Of a stretch of DNA of 64,000 nt, positions 1 through 64,000 are shown piece by piece. Each line of letters begins with the position of its first letter. Position 1 is the first letter of the stretch. The notes beneath the pieces were generated by a model. It had not been told where the DNA came from. It made no database searches and saw only the letters and a list, made by a program, of their open reading frames with translations. Location: positions 1,159,535 to 1,223,534 of the forward strand of contig OZ247428.1 of the NCBI GenBank assembly GCA_965232845.1, given 5' to 3'. The position numbers were made by a program, and so were the translations under genes. Origin of the DNA: Dehalococcoidia bacterium (lineage in GTDB: Bacteria > Chloroflexota > Dehalococcoidia > Lucifugimonadales > UBA3495).

Positions 1-3000
1 GCCCACGGATACACTAACTTCCTCGGCTGATAGCGGGTTGCCACGCACATCATGCAGGAAGCCTTCAATCCTGAAGCTTTCTTCCACCTCCACCTGGCCG
101 AGGGATACCCCGCCAAAGACTGTAGGGAGCACCGCAAAAAGATCCAGGCGGGCCGAATTCGCCCTCAGCAGGTCACTCCCCTCAAACAGAACCTTCACCT
201 CATGAGGGCCCGGATCAGTGAAGGTGTGAAGGAAGGCAAATTCACCGGCCGGTCCGGTGGTCAGGGGAGGCAGGTTGCGACTGTCCACGCTAGCTACCAG
301 TTCCAGGTTGGCAATTCCTGACCCGGTGTCGTCAAACAGCCGACCTTCAAAAACGGCTTCGTTGTCGACTTCCACCTCATTGACGCCCGTAAGTTCCATC
401 CCTGCCTGGGAATACACGGAAATTCCCGGGTCGCTCCAGGACTCCAGGTAGTTGTCGTTGGAAATGGCATGCGCCAGCAGCTGGTAATTGCCACGATCCA
501 TTGAAAGTGGAAGCTTTACGCTGGCCTCAAATACACCATTTCGCGCCACGGTTTCGCCCAGTTTCGTGCCACCGTGCTCCTTGGTTTCGTTCACGAATAT
601 TTCGACCGCAACACCATCAACATTGCTTCCTCCAACAGTTAAGACAGCGCCGCCCACCGTGAATTCCAGGCCACGCTCTATTTCCAAAGGCCAATGGAGA
701 ATCTCGATAACCGTTGCAACGGGCGGCTGAGGAGCAGGCGATGGCGCTGGCTCAGATTCTTCTGGAATCGGGTCCTGCTGCTCCGGATCTTCCTCCTGAG
801 CAATCTCCGGGATCTCGCTTGACTCTGGTCCACCTTCTTCACTTCCGAAGTTGCCGTCTGGCTCCGGCTGCTGCCCCTGACCCTGTGGCGCCTGTAATGA
901 ACCGTTGTTTAAAGACTCCGCAGCGGCCAAATCGGCGCGGGAGGGCGCTCCTCCAGAGCCGGTAGGTTCGAAGGTTAGCCAGCCCAACCCTTCAAAGGCG
1001 ACCTCAGCCCACTGGTGGGCTTGATTGACCTTCACCGTCTGGGGCTCCTCGGTTTCGCTAACCGCCCATCCCGATACCACCCTGGCAGGAAGACCTATAG
1101 ACCTGGCCATGACCACGAAAGCGGAACTGAATACACCACAAGTTCCTTCCTTGTGGTCAAACAGGAACCAGTCAACCGGGTCTCGGCTTGAGGGCGGGCG
1201 GCCTCCGCCAGAGGGATCGGCAAAAGCATACGCATAGTTGGTTTTGAGATAGGTCTCCAGGGCCCCCGCCTTACCGTATGGCGAAGTTTGACCTTTGGTT
1301 ACCTCCAGGGCCAAGGTACGAATCCGTTCAGGCAGGTTATCGGGAAGCTGGGTGAATTGAGGATCGGACACAGCCCTGGCGGCAGAAAGTTGTCCGGGCG
1401 AGAATTGTGGTATTTGAGCTACCCAAGTGTAGTTGTCGGTACCCTCGTTAAGGGAGAAGGTGGCGCTAAAGGGCATGAACTTGCCTGATCGGTCTAACTG
1501 GTCCAGAAAAAGTGAAGTTGGGGCAAGCCCCGACAAGATTTTCCCCGCCCCTTCTACGGGTTCGATCCTAATAGTATCTGTGTAAGTGACCGGTGGGTTA
1601 ACCTCAAATCTGGACAATAACTCTGTATTGCTTTGACTCTGGGATCCGCCCGAGAAGGAACCACTCAAAATCTCGTCATGAACCAGGCTGGGAATACTGG
1701 TTTCTGATTGGTATGCCAGCGATACCCCGTTCAGGGGTTGCCAACTGCCGTCCGCATACACCTCGCCCACGCCCTCCCGCAGGTACCTGGTGTGGCCGCT
1801 TCCGGTAACTACGAACAATGGCGTTTGAGACGGTTCGGCGGCTTGCGAGGTCGTGGTGCCAGCAGAAAAACCAACCGTTTGCCCGTCCCTGGAAACGAGG
1901 TTCCCTCCTGTTTCCGTATCCTGCACTTCGGCGCCCAGTTCTTCCAGTTCTTCCCTGGCCTGTGCCTGAGCTTCCGGAGCAGCGACCGCTAATTCTTCGA
2001 CGAGGGACTCCAATTCCTGCTGCTCACTTTGTTCCTGGACTCCGCCAGCTTGGGAGTTTCGGGTCGCCCGGTTGGGGGCGCTTCCGGATGCGGTAGGTTC
2101 AAAAAGAATCCAACCCAACCCCTCAAAGGCAACTTCGGCTCTCTGGTGAGCCTGATCGGAATATACTACCTGGGCGTCAGCAGTTGGAGTAATCGCCCAG
2201 CCCGAAACCACCCGGGCCGGCAATCCTACGGAACGGGCCAGAACCACGAAGGCGGTGCTGAAATTACCGCAGGTCCCTTCCAGGCCTTCAAACAGGAACC
2301 AGTCAACCGGGTCACTGCCTGGCGGGATGCCACCGGTGAGCGGATCTGCAAACCGATAGGTGTAGTTGGCCTTCAGGTGTTGTTCGATAGCCACCGCCTT
2401 CGCATAGGGCGCAACGTGGCCTTCCGTAATCTCCTCTGCCAGCAGCCGGACCCTTTCCGGCATCTCGCTGATAGCGGAAGTATGTTCGTATTGAGAGGAG
2501 TCCGCTGCAGTGTTAAGCTGCCCCGACGAGAAGGCAGGCATCGTCGCCGTCCAACTATAGCTCTCAACATTCGTGCCTATAGTGAACGTCATGCTGGCGG
2601 CGCGGAAAGTGCCGTCCGCGGTCACTCCAGTCAGCAGAGGCGAAGTGGGGACAATCCCACCTGGTATTTTTCCTCCTTCCTCAGGGGGCGCTACTGTCAC
2701 GCGCACCGTATGTTGCTGGGCCGGTGAAACAGTTATAAAGGAAACCGGGTTTGGGCTGGTGATGGTTGACCCTGATGAATACTGCAACTTAGTGGCTTCC
2801 AAGGGAATCCAGGCGCCATTGTCATAGCGGTCCCCCACGGCGGTACGAAGAAAATCTATACCGGCCGCCCCTTCCACCTCGAAAACCGGCAAGCGGGGAA
2901 GCTCCGAGGCCTGTTGTGAAGTCGCGCCAGGAATGAAGGTCTGGCCGTCGGGAAGGGCCAACAATCCCCCGCCGTTCTCCAGCGGGGCCACTGGACCCAA

Positions 3001-60367: not shown

Positions 60368-60757
60368 CTAAGTGGTCTCTCGCGCTTCTCTTTCAGCTTC
60401 AACTTGGGCACGCTGTTGTTCCCTAAGCGCAGAATACATCGCCCCCATAGTGCTCATGCTGCCCGTGTAGAGGGTGAATATACCCGCACCAAGCCAGGCC
60501 AGGACCTTAACTCGAGTGTCTTCAAACAGAGCAGTGACCGTAAACGCCATTATCACCAGAATCATCGCCATGGCGAGGCCCAAAAGCGAACCAAAAATCA
60601 GCCCGTGCAACGCGTAATGCCGTCCTGGATTGGGGGCGTACTGAATGCCCCAATAGCCGGCGAAGAAGGGTCCGGCAGGAGCCAGAACGAAGTGCGCAAT
60701 CGGTATCAGGAAACATCCTACGATAATGGCCAGCCCGACCAGCACTCCCACTAGCAT
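60368..60757 (-). CDS. Hypothetical small membrane protein
   Basis: 129 aa with four hydrophobic segments and a charged C-terminal tail REQQRAQVEAEREARETT. Confidence 0.5.
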   Translation of the reverse strand: MLVGVLVGLAIIVGCFLIPIAHFVLAPAGPFFAGYWGIQYAPNPGRHYALHGLIFGSLLGLAMAMILVIMAFTVTALFEDTRVKVLAWLGAGIFTLYTGSMSTMGAMYSALREQQRAQVEAEREARETT

Positions 60758-60858
60758 TTCAACCTCGGGGTTATCATCTCTCGGTTAGCGGGGCTGATTC
60801 TAGCACAGCCATCGGAGTTTGTGATGCAATATTTTCCCTTTCACGTTGTACCAGTTGG

Positions 60859-60867
60859 TGCTATAAT
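60859..60867 (+). promoter_or_regulatory. Extended -10 promoter element TGCTATAAT upstream of the Rrf2 gene
   Basis: TGnTATAAT at 60859-60867, 34 nt upstream of ATG 60901. It is the same 9-mer as at 16360. Confidence 0.4.
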
Positions 60868-60900
60868 TTGTGATGTTGTTGCGGTTTGGAGGTAAACGTC

Positions 60901-61329
60901 ATGAGAATCCCGATGAAAGTGGACTATGGCGTCCGGGCCCTGGTAGAGTTGGCAATGCACCACGGTAATGGTCCGGTGCAGACCTCTGAAATCGCCTCCA
61001 AGCAGGGCATTCCCGAGTCCTATCTGGTCCAGCTTATGTCCACTCTGAACCACTGCGGCTACGTTCAGAGTCGTCGCGGGCCCCAGGGCGGCCATTCGTT
61101 AGCAATGGAGCCCTCCGACATAAACTTACACATGATAATGACTACGCTGGACGGCAACAGTTCTCCCCTGGACTGCTTGACCTATGTTACGGACTGTATT
61201 TTTGCAGATTCGTGCGCCCAGCAGGAAATCTGGAAGTCCGTCGAAGAAGCAATTGAAAGTGTGCTGGCCAACATTACTCTTGAACATCTGGCCAGGCGCC
61301 AGGAGTACCTCTCCGCACAGAGCGTATAG
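60901..61329 (+). CDS. Rrf2-family transcriptional regulator (IscR/CymR-like)
   Basis: MRIPMKVDYGVRALVELAMHHGNGPVQTSEIASKQGIPESYLVQLMSTLNHCGYVQSRRGPQGGHSLA. GGAGG lies at 60888-60892. Confidence 0.85.
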   Translation: MRIPMKVDYGVRALVELAMHHGNGPVQTSEIASKQGIPESYLVQLMSTLNHCGYVQSRRGPQGGHSLAMEPSDINLHMIMTTLDGNSSPLDCLTYVTDCIFADSCAQQEIWKSVEEAIESVLANITLEHLARRQEYLSAQSV

Positions 61330-61403
61330 TTTTTAGGGGCGTTCTCCGGAACGTCTTAGCCCAGTCTATAGAGGCACCTGTACTTTCTAATGCTCCAGCT
61401 TTC

Positions 61404-61432
61404 TTGACAACCCATTGCCCCAAAGCTAGAAT
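61404..61432 (+). promoter_or_regulatory. Sigma-70-type promoter TTGACA-17 nt-TAGAAT
   Basis: TTGACA at 61404-61409, a 17-nt spacer, then TAGAAT at 61427-61432. The predicted start is near 61439-61440. Confidence 0.6.
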
Positions 61433-61443
61433 CCAGCCAGACG

Positions 61444-61497
61444 ATGAACCAGCACGAGTTAGAACAGAAACAGAATTGCACCTGTCCCCTTACATAG
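61444..61497 (+). CDS. Candidate 17-aa leader peptide MNQHELEQKQNCTCPLT
   Basis: ATG lies about 5 nt after the predicted transcription start, so there is no SD (effectively leaderless). Cys codons are at 61477-61479 and 61483-61485. The TAG stop lies in the loop of the first hairpin. Confidence 0.3.
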   Translation: MNQHELEQKQNCTCPLT

Positions 61498-61523
61498 GGG
61501 GTAGGCTTTCAACAGATACAGGA

Positions 61524-61574
61524 GCCTGCACCCGCCCAAAGTGGGCGACCCTTAATGGGTGCGGGCTTTTTCTT
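61524..61574 (+). terminator. Intrinsic terminator of the leader transcript
   Basis: GCCTGCACCC (61524-61533) pairs with GGGTGCGGGC (61557-61566) over 10 bp, including one G-U. An inner mini-hairpin is CGCCCA-aag-TGGGCG. The tract TTTTTCTT follows. Confidence 0.65.
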
Positions 61575-61704
61575 CGCCTTAATGCAAGAGCATGCCTATA
61601 TTCGATAAGCATGTGATACTACGGGACACATTGGCAGACTCATACCAGGTTGGCCACCCAATACCAAACTGGCCGAACCGCAACTATAGGAGGAACAAGT
61701 CCTT

Positions 61705-62547
61705 ATGACTCAACAACCTCTCGCCCTTACGCCCGAACAAGTCAAGCGCTATAGCCGGCATATCATCATGGGTGACGTCGGCAGTGCGGGACAACGAAAA
61801 CTGATGCAATCGAAGGCCTTGATAGTGGGAGCCGGTGGCCTGGGTTCCCCTTCCGCTATCTATCTGGCGCTGGCCGGCGTAGGAACGGTAGGCATTGTGG
61901 ACTTCGACGTCGTGGAAATATCCAATCTGCAACGCCAGATCCTGCACCACTCCAGCGATATTGGCCGGCCCAAGCTTCAGTCGGCCATCGACAACATCCA
62001 CGCCTACAATCCTGACGTGAATGTGGTTCCCCACGAAGTAAGGCTTGAGTCCGACAACGCCATGGAGATCATCAGCCAGTACGACCTGGTGATTAATGGC
62101 GCGGACAATTTCGCTACCAGGTATCTGGTTAACGATGCCTGCTATTTGCTGAACAAGCCGTTGGTCGATGGAAGCATACTCATCTTTGACGGCCAGTCTA
62201 CGGTGTTCTTGCCCGGTCAGGGCTGCTACCGGTGCCTCTTCCCGTCGCCGCCCCCTCCAGGTATGGTTCCCAACTGTGCCGAGGCCGGCGTGTTGGGCGC
62301 GCTTACCGGACTGGTGGGCAGCATCCAGGCAACCGAGGCACTCAAGTACTTCCTGGGCATCGGTGAAAGCCTGTGCTCCAGGCTGCTGCTGATCGATGCA
62401 TTGAGCATGACGTTCCGCGAGGTCAAATTGAAGCGGAATCCGGCGTGCCCACTCTGCGGTGACAACCCGACAGTCACAGAATTGATAGATTACGAGATAT
62501 TCTGCGGTGTGGCTGCCCTGGAAGCGGCCGGCGTCGCCGACAACTAA
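61705..62547 (+). CDS. MoeB/ThiF-family E1-like adenylyltransferase (no rhodanese domain)
   Basis: RYSRHIIMGDVGSAGQRKLMQSKALIVGAGGLGSPSAIYLALAGVG...ISNLQRQILH, with Zn-site CxxC pairs CYRC and CPLC. A GGAGG RBS is present. Confidence 0.85.
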   Translation: MTQQPLALTPEQVKRYSRHIIMGDVGSAGQRKLMQSKALIVGAGGLGSPSAIYLALAGVGTVGIVDFDVVEISNLQRQILHHSSDIGRPKLQSAIDNIHAYNPDVNVVPHEVRLESDNAMEIISQYDLVINGADNFATRYLVNDACYLLNKPLVDGSILIFDGQSTVFLPGQGCYRCLFPSPPPPGMVPNCAEAGVLGALTGLVGSIQATEALKYFLGIGESLCSRLLLIDALSMTFREVKLKRNPACPLCGDNPTVTELIDYEIFCGVAALEAAGVADN

Positions 62548-62601
62548 GGCGAAGAGATAACAACCCGAACGCGGCGATATAGGCAGGTTTAGGCGAAGAT
62601 T

Positions 62602-63552
62602 ATGGGTTGTCGGCGGGCATACAAGGGTATTCTGGAGACCATTGGCAACACACCAATGGTGGAATTGCAATGGCTTAGCCCCAAACCAGAAGTACGTATA
62701 TTCGCCAAACTGGAAGGGCAGAACCCCACAGGGAGTGTCAAAGATCGCATTGCCCTGAACATGATTGAGCGGGCTGAGGCGAACGGTGAAGTCTCTTCCA
62801 ACCGGACTATCCTTGAGCCTACCAGTGGGAACACTGGCATTTCTCTGGCCATGATCGGAATGCTAAAGGGATACAAAGTAACGGTGGTCATGCCCGAGAA
62901 TGTGAGCGAAGAACGAAGTCAACTGCTCCATGCTTACGGCGCCGAGATCATTTTTTCTGACGGGGAGAAAGGAAGCAACGGGTCTATAGAGGTTGCCCAG
63001 GATTTGGCAGAGAAAAACCCACATGACTACGTGATGATGTACCAGTACGGAAATAGTGGGAACCCTGACGCCCACTATGAAACCACCGGGCCGGAGATAA
63101 TAGAAGCTGTTCCTGACGTGGATACTTTCGTGGCCGGCCTTGGCACCGGCGGCACCCTTATGGGCGTGGCACGCAGCCTGCGGGAACACAGGTCCGACGT
63201 GAGAATCGTCGCCGTAGCCCCTGAACCTGACGACTTCATTTCGGGGTTGCGACGCCTGGAAGATGGGTATATACCCCCTATTTTGGATATCAACATGCTG
63301 GATGCCAGGCTACTGGTGGGCAGCTATCCAGCATTCCGCACCACCAAGGAGCTGTTGCACAAGGAAGGGATATTCGCCGGCATTTCGTCAGGGTCAGTGG
63401 TGCACGGTGCCATCCGCCAGGCAGAACGCATGGAGAACGGTAATATCGTGTGCCTCCTGGCCGATGGCGGATGGAAATACCTTAGCACTAGCCTTTGGAC
63501 CAAGGACTATGAGCAACTGGAGGAGGAAGTGCAGGGGAAGATTTGGTGGTAA
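62602..63552 (+). CDS. PLP-dependent cysteine synthase (CysK/CysM family)
   Basis: IGNTPMVEL...EGQNPTGSVKDRIALNMIE...EPTSGNTGISLA...GTGGT. Confidence 0.85.
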   Translation: MGCRRAYKGILETIGNTPMVELQWLSPKPEVRIFAKLEGQNPTGSVKDRIALNMIERAEANGEVSSNRTILEPTSGNTGISLAMIGMLKGYKVTVVMPENVSEERSQLLHAYGAEIIFSDGEKGSNGSIEVAQDLAEKNPHDYVMMYQYGNSGNPDAHYETTGPEIIEAVPDVDTFVAGLGTGGTLMGVARSLREHRSDVRIVAVAPEPDDFISGLRRLEDGYIPPILDINMLDARLLVGSYPAFRTTKELLHKEGIFAGISSGSVVHGAIRQAERMENGNIVCLLADGGWKYLSTSLWTKDYEQLEEEVQGKIWW

Positions 63553-63636
63553 GCTCCTTCGGCCCACATGCCACAAGGCTAAACTGAGGTCTGACGGCTC
63601 TCTCAAGGGTCTGTATAGCAGGAATTAGACTGATAA

Positions 63637-63674
63637 ACAGGTGCGGATAGGTATCCCGCACCTGTTTTGCTTTT
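63637..63674 (+). terminator. Intrinsic terminator after the cysteine synthase gene
   Basis: ACAGGTGCGG (63637-63646), a 9-nt loop, then CCGCACCTGT (63656-63665), followed by TTTTGCTTTT. Confidence 0.6.
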
Positions 63675-63768
63675 CAGGTTACAACGTTGGTATTCCTGCC
63701 CCACAGACAGAAGAGAACTAACCGAACCGACGGCAAGGTCTGGGGGCTATGCCAGGCCAGGCTCCAAG

Positions 63769-63797
63769 TTGAAAGCAATTGGGGTCAATGTTATACT
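63769..63797 (+). promoter_or_regulatory. Sigma-70-type promoter TTGAAA-17 nt-TATACT upstream of nusA
   Basis: TTGAAA at 63769-63774, a 17-nt spacer, then TATACT at 63792-63797. Confidence 0.45.
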
Positions 63798-63896
63798 GGG
63801 GCAGTGCTTTTTGAAGGTAGCGGGGTTAACCCGCTTTCTTGCTAATTGGCACATAGTTTGTTTGGCGAAAGTCTCATCCAGCTTCAGATTGGGAGA

Positions 63897-64000
63897 ATGG
63901 CAGTGAAGAGCGACTTTTTGATTGCGCTGACTCAGTTGGCCGCCGAACGTCATTTGCCCAAGGAGCAGGTGCTGCAGGCTATAGAAGTAGCCTTGGCATC
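63897..64000 (+). CDS. nusA: Transcription termination/antitermination factor NusA, 5' end only (runs off the window)
   Basis: Hand translation gives MAVKSDFLIALTQLAAERHLPKEQVLQAIEVALA, which matches the conserved NusA N-terminus pattern (..LP.E.....A.E.ALA). GTG at 63903 with GGGAGA at 63891-63896 is an alternative start. The ORF is not in the track because it has no stop in the window. Confidence 0.7.
   Translation, partial: MAVKSDFLIALTQLAAERHLPKEQVLQAIEVALA

Follow-up and report, generated by a model that had tools for sequence, protein, structure and literature searches.

A candidate cysteine-codon leader-peptide attenuator upstream of MoeB/MoeZ-like and cysteine synthase genes in SAR202 Dehalococcoidia

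Introduction

A short region on contig OZ247428.1 (assembly GCA_965232845.1) of a Dehalococcoidia bacterium (SAR202, Chloroflexota) raises the question whether an operon for cysteine synthesis is controlled by ribosomes translating cysteine codons at the start of its own transcript. The analysed stretch comprises 64,000 nucleotides (nt) of this contig and is called the window in the following. The region in question is located between an Rrf2-family regulator gene and an operon encoding a MoeB/MoeZ/ThiF-family adenylyltransferase (hereafter ThiF-like) and a cysteine synthase. From the letters of the window alone, an original prediction had proposed that it holds a promoter, a short open reading frame (ORF) with Cys codons and three alternative helices ending in a terminator. 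Our analysis supports this interpretation: the element is very likely a ribosome-mediated (leader-peptide) transcription attenuator specific for cysteine that controls the MoeB/MoeZ-like and cysteine synthase operon. The case rests wholly on sequence comparison and folding, and each comparative check that was run and could have spoken against it came out in its favour.

For the comparison we searched with the ThiF-like protein and obtained 80 loci from metagenome-assembled genomes (MAGs) labelled Dehalococcoidia, SAR202 cluster or Chloroflexota, with protein identities of 77–99%. A covariance model of the leader was built from 61 upstream regions of related loci and searched in 81 sources. In 65 of these 81 it found exactly one strong match (52–101 bits), always just upstream of the ThiF-like gene. 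The site in the window was matched with E = 3e-23 and nothing else in the 64 kb was found; likewise no second leader copy was detected in the window or in the flanks of the 80 loci.

Leader reading frame and cysteine codons

At positions 61444–61497 of the plus strand we read an ORF of 17 codons plus stop encoding MNQHELEQKQNCTCPLT (ATG AAC CAG CAC GAG TTA GAA CAG AAA CAG AAT TGC ACC TGT CCC CTT ACA TAG), exactly as had been predicted. Its two putative regulatory Cys codons, TGC at 61477–61479 and TGT at 61483–61485, are separated by a single ACC codon and are conserved in orthologues, in which in-frame ORFs of 14–29 codons are found. In 61 of 62 loci the first ATG past the -10 box of the promoter shares its frame with the conserved stop, and no stop interrupts this frame in any of the 61. 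Not one of the 1031 codons in the leader frame is a stop, compared with 79 and 24 stops in the other two frames over the same stretches. The lengths of the ORFs (14, 15, 16, 17, 18, 19, 23 and 29 codons) always differ by whole codons, and in one leader the stop is replaced by CAG.

While the N-terminus of the leader peptide varies freely, its C-terminus reads C-[T/A]-C-P-x-[T/K]-stop. Cys is present at position -6 from the stop in 65 of 66 leaders (TGC in 29, TGT in 36) and at -4 in 63 of 66. Nineteen leaders have a further Cys at -8 and many add Cys at -8 and -10, with a maximum of four per leader; apart from single-Cys exceptions the number of Cys codons ranges from 2 to 4. Cys accounts for 14% of the residues in the leader ORF versus 3% in the other frames. 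None of the helices described below includes the first conserved Cys codon, whose T and G are invariant and whose third base alternates between C and T. The codon between the Cys pair varies as well (ACC/ACT/ACG/GCC/GCT), and the Pro codon takes all four third bases. Both features that had been singled out for comparison with orthologous leaders, the ORF and its Cys codons, were thus retained, and by its coding signature the leader ORF appears to be under selection as a reading frame.

We also observed that the loop and the last sense codon (61491–61497 in the window, and the corresponding orthologous positions) are unusually conserved, the last codon being ACA in 49 and AAA in 8 of 66 leaders and the stop TAG in 64 of 66. 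The last Cys is followed by Pro, which is often doubled (CPPT). Pairing explains part of the conservation of the loop, the last sense codon and the stop, and the conserved Pro/last-codon/stop context could in addition contribute to termination, or to a pause, at the stop codon.

Promoter and transcription start

Upstream of the ORF we found the predicted sigma-70-type promoter on the plus strand, with a -35 box TTGACA at 61404–61409, a 17-nt spacer and a -10 box TAGAAT at 61427–61432. It matches the consensus at 11 of 12 positions and is the best promoter-like site within 60700–64000. The arrangement is preserved in orthologous leaders, with TTGACA as -35 box in 65 of 66, a -10 box of the type TAnACT and a spacer of 17 or 18 nt. 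In the window 11 nt separate the -10 box from the ATG at 61444, and in 59 of 66 leaders the distance from the end of the -10 box to the start codon is 8–11 nt. Given the usual distance from a -10 box, transcription would start at about 61438–61443 on the plus strand, and in the leader messenger RNA (mRNA) the 5' untranslated region (UTR) would comprise about 0–5 nt, leaving no room for a Shine-Dalgarno sequence.

Alternative helices and terminator

The three mutually exclusive helices of the original prediction are present at the positions it had given for them. Segment 1 (CCTGTCCCCT, 61481–61490) overlaps the last Cys codon and the Pro codon. Segment 2 (AGGGGGTAGGC, 61496–61506) begins within the stop codon and can pair with either segment 1 or segment 3 (GCCTGCACCC, 61524–61533), the latter being the 5' arm of the terminator or the 3' arm of the antiterminator. 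Segment 4 (GGGTGCGGGC, 61557–61566) and the U-run TTTTTCTT (61567–61574) form an intrinsic terminator with segment 3; all four segments are on the plus strand. Helix 1:2 (61481–61490 with 61496–61505) has 10 pairs, two of them G-U. Helix 2:3 (61497–61506 with 61524–61533) pairs at 9 of 10 positions, including one G-U, with one G-A mismatch, and helix 3:4 (61524–61533 with 61557–61566) has 10 pairs directly followed by TTTTTCTT. The TAG at 61495–61497 had been placed in the loop of helix 1:2. This holds for its T only, since segment 2 begins with its A and G; in orthologues, the stop codon sits between segments 1 and 2.

The terminator loop of 23 nt holds an inner hairpin, GCCCA-AAG-TGGGC (61534–61546, plus strand), and inner hairpins of varying sequence are found at the same place in orthologues. 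The leader of the window folds with z = -2.67, and 2 of 200 shuffled sequences fold equally well. The two alternative states are represented by its minimum-free-energy and its centroid structure, which differ by no more than 2.4 kcal/mol.

A conserved structured 5' leader with a terminator in front of sulfur-metabolism genes is also what would be expected of a metabolite-binding riboswitch, or another structured cis-acting RNA that senses a sulfur metabolite directly. Scanning against Rfam had been suggested as a check against known riboswitches. With Rfam 15 no match was obtained in the whole window at gathering thresholds and none in 61300–61760 even at E <= 10, and known riboswitches, T-boxes and leader families were therefore set aside. 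What is conserved, moreover, are two simple hairpins; a conserved junction or internal loop from which a pocket could be built is missing, the spacers and inner hairpins are free to vary, and the codon-periodic conservation points to translation. A direct metabolite sensor is thus extremely unlikely.

The same promoter and terminator would, whenever attenuation is on, release an RNA of about 130 nt, and the element could be read as an independent small RNA of this length which acts in trans from its own promoter and terminator. However, the element is always located on the same strand and directly upstream of a sulfur-assimilation operon that has no other recognisable promoter. A small RNA would leave the coding signature unexplained, and a role in trans would add to the role in cis and not replace it. 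We consider this reading hardly credible. The riboswitch and a small RNA of about 135 nt had both been named as alternatives from the start; we keep them as rivals of very low probability, and the evidence favours the attenuator.

Conservation of the leader in related loci

Helix pairing was scored on the model-based alignment of 65 leaders, using as controls the same partners slid by 1–3 columns and 500 shuffles. Helices 1:2 and 3:4 are jointly paired in 84.2% of cells versus 35–55% for slid partners. Individually, helix 1:2 reaches 80.4% and helix 3:4 88%. Helix 2:3, to which the alignment had not been fitted, is paired in 83.3% versus 36–55% and in 92% when a single position, at which 61 of 65 leaders have a mismatch, is left out. 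Among these related and highly conserved sequences we counted 17 double-change cells for 1:2 and 3:4 and nine for 2:3, numbers reached by none of the 500 shuffles in either case. In four loci, for instance, a C-to-U change in segment 3 is accompanied by G-to-A in segment 2, which keeps 2:3 and is tolerated by 3:4 as G-U. In eight loci G-to-A in segment 3 together with C-to-U in segment 4 turns one G-C pair of 3:4 into A-U. The three pairings have similar median duplex energies of -16.8 (1:2), -18.3 (2:3) and -17.0 kcal/mol (3:4), and in 52 of 65 loci the 2:3 duplex ranks within the best 1% of genomic 12-mers. Cognate duplexes of segments 2 and 3 are little better than non-cognate ones (-17.8 versus -17.3 kcal/mol), a weak test because the segments are so conserved. 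All three helices were kept in the orthologous leaders, as was the U-run in nearly all of them.

A low-GC clade provides what is the best independent evidence for the architecture as judged from sequence. Its leaders encode MKQISVICACMNLQT with stop TAA (L043) or MENKLNACHCMYPPK with stop TGA (L106 and L107), and the helices are of the type CCUCC/GGAGG compared to CCUGYNCCC/GGGNRCAGG in the main clade. The promoter, the C-x-C ORF, the stop between segments 1 and 2, the three complementarities and the U-run are all kept.

In an abundant marine SAR202 type, whose ThiF-like protein is recorded on 148 contigs, the leader has a different form (L108 and L109). The ORF has 29 codons and ends in CTCTYPPT, with Tyr in place of the last Cys; segments 2 and 3 have changed (GGGGUGGGUG / GCCCACACCC), and the stem 3:4 is weaker. 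The attenuator may be drifting here, or it may have been rewired.

The Rrf2-family gene is found directly upstream of the leader in the window and in most loci. The adjacency noted in the original prediction is therefore real, but the link is not essential: 12 loci have the leader without Rrf2 upstream, and in four loci Rrf2 is directly upstream without a leader. The adjacency and the palindromic character of segments 1 and 2 would fit inverted repeats that serve as sites for a regulator protein such as the neighbouring Rrf2 protein (IscR/CymR-like), acting by repression or protein-dependent termination, with the ORF being incidental. Such sites would, however, be located at +40 to +130 downstream of the promoter. 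They would leave the in-frame ATG, the absence of stops, the synonymous variation of the Cys codons and the U-run unexplained, and the low-GC clade changes the sequence of the palindromes completely. This is a very unlikely explanation, and an Rrf2 operator was rejected because of the independent occurrence of leader and Rrf2 gene.

Ribosome position and proposed mechanism

In an attenuator of the trp/his type the position of the ribosome decides which helix forms. A ribosome covers about 12–13 nt 3' of the first base in its A site. With the last Cys codon in the A site it would cover segment 1 and the loop and leave segment 2 free; at the stop codon, 12 nt further on, it would cover segment 2. 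The distance from the last Cys codon to the stop is constantly 12 nt in the main clade. That this step would shift the mask from segment 1 to segment 2 explains why exactly three codons are placed between the last Cys codon and the stop. By this model the geometry of the leader fits the trp/his logic.

We folded the 65 leaders with a ribosome placed either at the last Cys codon or at the stop codon. For transcripts that end at segment 3 and carry the ribosome at the last Cys codon, 63 of 65 folds contain helix 2:3. A ribosome placed at the stop codon leads to the terminator in 62 of 65. Folds of the free RNA contain 1:2 in 51 and 3:4 in 52 of 65 cases. The proposed switch, in which stalling leads to the antiterminator and arrival at the stop to the terminator, is thus supported at the level of sequence and modelled folding.

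We propose the following mechanism. Transcription would begin a few nt before the ATG, so that the mRNA on which the 17-codon ORF is translated would be leaderless or nearly so. With plentiful Cys-tRNA(Cys), the ribosome would reach the TAG and its footprint would cover segment 2; after its release segment 1 would pair with segment 2. Whether masked or paired with segment 1, segment 2 would leave segment 3 free for segment 4, and 3:4 with the U-run would terminate transcription at about 61570–61575. When Cys-tRNA(Cys) is scarce, the ribosome would stall with TGC or TGT in its A site, covering segment 1 and leaving segment 2 free. Segment 2 would then pair with segment 3 as soon as the latter is transcribed, no terminator would form and RNA polymerase would read into the operon. 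If the leader is not translated at all, 1:2 and 3:4 would form and transcription would terminate.

Putative target genes and a second operon

The first gene behind the leader (61705–62547, plus strand; Pfam ThiF, E = 5e-82) encodes the ThiF-like enzyme of 280 amino acids. It has its own strong Shine-Dalgarno sequence, AGGAGG. The protein matches the NCBIfam models of MoeB and MoeZ with scores under their equivalog cut-offs. According to Pfam it consists of the ThiF domain alone (residues 16–249), with no extra N-terminal peptide-clamp domain. The second gene (62602–63552, plus strand; Pfam PALP) encodes a cysteine synthase of the CysK/CysM subfamily with 316 amino acids, scoring 360.8 bits against NCBIfam TIGR01136 (cysKM) at a cut-off of 344. 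The order of the two genes is constant in nearly all related loci. With a cysteine synthase and a MoeB/MoeZ-like enzyme downstream of the leader ORF, the pathway fits the Cys codons.

Metagenome contigs were scanned for exact matches to a pattern of the leader core, which yielded 25 loci. Thirteen of them have a ThiF-like gene downstream. In nine others (L082, L088, L090, L092–L094, L096, L097 and L099) the downstream gene is different, namely a NIR_SIR sulfite/nitrite reductase gene followed by a gene for the uroporphyrinogen-III synthase HemD. The leaders of these nine loci contain ORFs of 16–18 codons with 3–4 Cys codons, for example MESMINLFCRCTCTCPPT, MKLHPSIFCCCTCPPT and MNRFDSTFCFCTCPPT. 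The promoter layout is as in the ThiF-linked leaders and segments 1–3 are the same, whereas the terminator differs: it reads GCCCACC...GGTGGGC followed by a U-run, with a 5' arm that overlaps segment 3. That two operons of sulfur assimilation have a Cys-codon leader in common argues strongly that the signal is cysteine, and the leaders at the sulfite reductase-HemD operons suggest, at the level of sequence, a small cysteine regulon run by attenuation. We consider it probable that SAR202/Dehalococcoidia possess a 'cysteine ribulon' in which near-leaderless C-x-C ORFs control at least two operons (MoeB-like plus cysteine synthase, and sulfite reductase plus HemD) by terminator/antiterminator attenuation.

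The two operons also bear on a reading in which translation of the leader matters and Cys-tRNA charging does not. The leader would then be a translation-dependent attenuator that reports general translation capacity, or pausing at the Pro/stop context (C-P-x-T-UAG, often C-P-P-T-UAG). The Pro that follows the last Cys in most leaders and the strong conservation of the last sense codon and the stop would fit such a sensor. The Pro, Thr and stop codons are however located in segment 1, the loop or segment 2, where pairing explains much of their conservation. The invariant T and G and free third base of the first conserved Cys codon outside the helices speak for Cys as the codon that is read, as do the extra Cys codons, up to four in total, that accumulate upstream of the conserved pair. 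Both regulated operons, in addition, serve cysteine or sulfur assimilation. We regard a sensor of general translation or of the stop context as improbable.

A tiny ORF directly in front of a ThiF-family gene with a terminator in between further resembles the layout of mccA and mccB in microcin C clusters. The ORF could thus encode a functional peptide, either a substrate of the ThiF-like enzyme, in the way that MccB acts on MccA, or a metal- or redox-binding micropeptide of the Cys-x-Cys type, the hairpin setting the stoichiometry of the transcripts. In MccA/MccB-like clusters the precursor peptide ends in Asn and the ThiF-like enzyme has an N-terminal peptide-binding domain. The leader peptides lack a C-terminal Asn and end in Thr or Lys, their N-terminus and length vary, and the 280-amino-acid enzyme is of the MoeB/MoeZ type without the extra clamp domain. 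The same kind of ORF is found in front of sulfite reductase genes with no ThiF-like partner, and the 2:3 complementarity would be left unexplained. A functional peptide is thus exceedingly unlikely; an MccA-like peptide was rejected, given the missing Asn end and clamp domain and the occurrence of the ORF in front of sulfite reductase genes. Even taken together, the Rrf2 operator, the riboswitch, the functional or MccA-like peptide and the trans-acting small RNA are unlikely, because none of them can explain the coding signature, the occurrence at a second operon and the independence from Rrf2 together.

Observations against attenuation

Several observations weigh against the cysteine-specific attenuator. 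The sequences are highly conserved and true covariation is modest. The complementarity of segments 2 and 3 is partly a by-product, because segment 1 resembles segment 3 and segment 2 resembles segment 4. RNAalifold, applied to the 61-sequence alignment, returns the terminator stem only and neither 1:2 nor 2:3, probably because alternative pairings compete; explicit pair counts were therefore used. At equilibrium, the full-length leader with a stalled ribosome contains 2:3 in 31 and the terminator helix 3:4 in 33 of 65 folds. As these folds are split and the nascent ones separate the two states, the choice would have to be kinetic and co-transcriptional, as in classical attenuators. In the free RNA of the window the minimum-free-energy fold already holds a partial 2:3 helix. 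One leader (L007) has no U-run.

Further points concern translation of the leader. The ORF has no Shine-Dalgarno sequence, and with a 5' UTR of about 0–5 nt leaderless-type initiation would be required, while among 12 Chloroflexi genomes only 4 have predicted leaderless genes, which make up about 5% of their genes (PMC3160421). In three leaders TTG would have to serve as start. The leader of the window contains only two Cys codons, which are not adjacent; L025 and L075 have a single Cys codon, and L036 carries a frameshift.

Comparison with known leader peptides

The leaders of E. coli trp, Salmonella his, leu, thr, ilv and pheA share with the SAR202 leader a short ORF with codons for the end product and four segments which form 1:2, the antiterminator 2:3, and the terminator 3:4 plus U-run. 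In both, the stop is placed such that a terminating ribosome masks segment 2, and the regulatory codons and the length of the ORF are conserved while the rest of the peptide is not. Two regulatory codons suffice in the trp leader as well. Unlike the classical leaders, the SAR202 leader would sense cysteine and is hosted by Chloroflexota (SAR202) instead of Proteobacteria. Its ORF lacks a Shine-Dalgarno sequence and starts about 0–5 nt from the predicted transcription start, its Cys codons are split by one codon with the second lying within segment 1, and additional small hairpins sit in the terminator loop. In sequence it is unrelated to the classical leaders, as no Rfam leader family matched.

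Attenuation by Cys-specific leader peptides had been described in the original prediction as not well characterised. This statement needs revision, as precedents exist, one of them shown experimentally and two predicted. In mycobacteria, leaderless polycysteine small ORFs (sORFs) act as cysteine-responsive attenuators (Canestrari et al. 2020, bioRxiv 10.1101/834739; Mol Microbiol 114:93). In these the Cys tract pairs with the Shine-Dalgarno sequence of the next gene, resulting in translational control with no intrinsic terminator (10.1101/834739). The SAR202 leaders are similar in that a Cys ORF without Shine-Dalgarno sequence is predicted to lie at the 5' end of the mRNA, with the Cys codons near the 3' end of the ORF. 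They likewise precede cysteine or sulfur operons, several of which would form a 'ribulon', and stalling at Cys codons would open an inhibitory structure. They differ in that Cys codons are consecutive in mycobacteria and of the C-x-C type in SAR202; the phyla are different and there is no sequence similarity. The Cys region of the SAR202 leader competes for the antiterminator by pairing with segment 2 and is followed by a U-run terminator. The Shine-Dalgarno sequence of the ThiF-like gene lies about 130–200 nt downstream and is not involved, unlike the one paired in mycobacteria.

For the leader uORFC-8-2 upstream of Rhodobacterales cysS, ribosome-mediated transcription attenuation has been predicted (Brewer et al. 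2021, PMC8632094). It resembles the SAR202 leader in its conserved AUG, two conserved Cys near peptide positions 14–15, a first stem containing them and an end in a U-run. It differs in preceding a Cys-tRNA synthetase gene, in its tandem Cys, in its occurrence in Alphaproteobacteria and, compared by description, in belonging to another sequence family; it too is a prediction only. In Actinobacteria, short ORFs whose Cys codons form runs close to the stop were predicted upstream of cysteine genes (2005, PMC1262725). Rho-dependent termination was put forward for these, as they showed neither a terminator nor conserved hairpins; in SAR202, by contrast, an intrinsic terminator and an antiterminator are conserved.

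We found no earlier description of this element in SAR202 or Chloroflexi in the literature searched, the coverage of which is incomplete. Attenuation by ORFs with Cys codons is already known, and the SAR202/Dehalococcoidia family is previously undescribed. If our interpretation is true, this would be the first case of classical transcription attenuation at cysteine biosynthesis genes and, as far as the searched literature shows, the first family of leader-peptide attenuators described in Chloroflexota. It would also join leaderless translation initiation with control by intrinsic termination. Cysteine has long been a conspicuous gap among the amino acids with leader-peptide attenuators, and the only tested cases, those of mycobacteria, act on translation; the family would show textbook trp-type transcriptional attenuation applied to cysteine. 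SAR202 is an abundant uncultured lineage of ocean and sponges whose gene regulation is almost unstudied. Here the leader would mark the MoeB-like/CysM pair and the sulfite reductase operon as co-regulated genes of cysteine supply, and it would support a functional use of leaderless-type initiation in Chloroflexota. The covariance model, with 65 or more members, could enter RNA family databases and serve in annotating MAGs. At about 130 nt the attenuator design is compact and testable in vitro.

Gene neighbourhood and additional observations

The operon ends with an intrinsic terminator at 63638–63674 of the plus strand, CAGGTGCGG-ATAGGTATC-CCGCACCTG plus TTTTGCTTTT, which was read from the sequence downstream of the cysteine synthase gene. 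It consists of a 9-bp stem, a 9-nt loop and the run TTTTGCTTTT, and was missed by a simple scan because of its loop length. This terminator is canonical and shows that the organism uses terminators of the hairpin-plus-U-run kind. It is followed by nusA, which begins at about 63899.

Neither a sulfite reductase gene nor a ThiS/CysO-like ORF ending in Gly-Gly was found in the 64-kb window. The pairing of the MoeB-like enzyme with CysM is analogous to the sulfur-carrier pathway of mycobacterial MoeZR, CysO and CysM (PMC3227635). By this analogy one might guess at a sulfur-carrier-dependent pathway for the pair, and this stays a guess because of the missing CysO-like gene in the window.

The Rrf2-family gene upstream of the leader (60901–61329) has a promoter-like site of its own, TTCACG-16-TATAAT (60840–60867). 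Its product contains three cysteines spaced as C-x6-C-x5-C (in LDCLTYVTDCIFADSC), a pattern typical of IscR-like members that bind Fe-S, and it scores similarly against the models of IscR and CymR, under both cut-offs. Upstream of this gene, a hydrophobic ORF of 129 amino acids without Pfam match is located on the minus strand (60368–60757). Its position upstream of the Rrf2 gene is kept in many related loci.

In some SAR202 lineages without the Cys leader, other conserved-looking structured 5' UTRs precede the ThiF-like gene (L069, L071 and L073 at about 2860–3000, L078–L080 at about 2900–3000). They are of two types, with either CUGCGCC...GGCGCAG stems or a GCCGUUGUC/GACGACGGC helix ending at the Shine-Dalgarno sequence. 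Rfam scans of the regions upstream of the ThiF-like genes in these lineages returned nothing relevant, and the structures may represent a different, undescribed regulatory RNA. In the flank of a further locus (L072, 122–311, minus strand) we found a cobalamin riboswitch (RF00174, 83 bits) which is unrelated to the leader.

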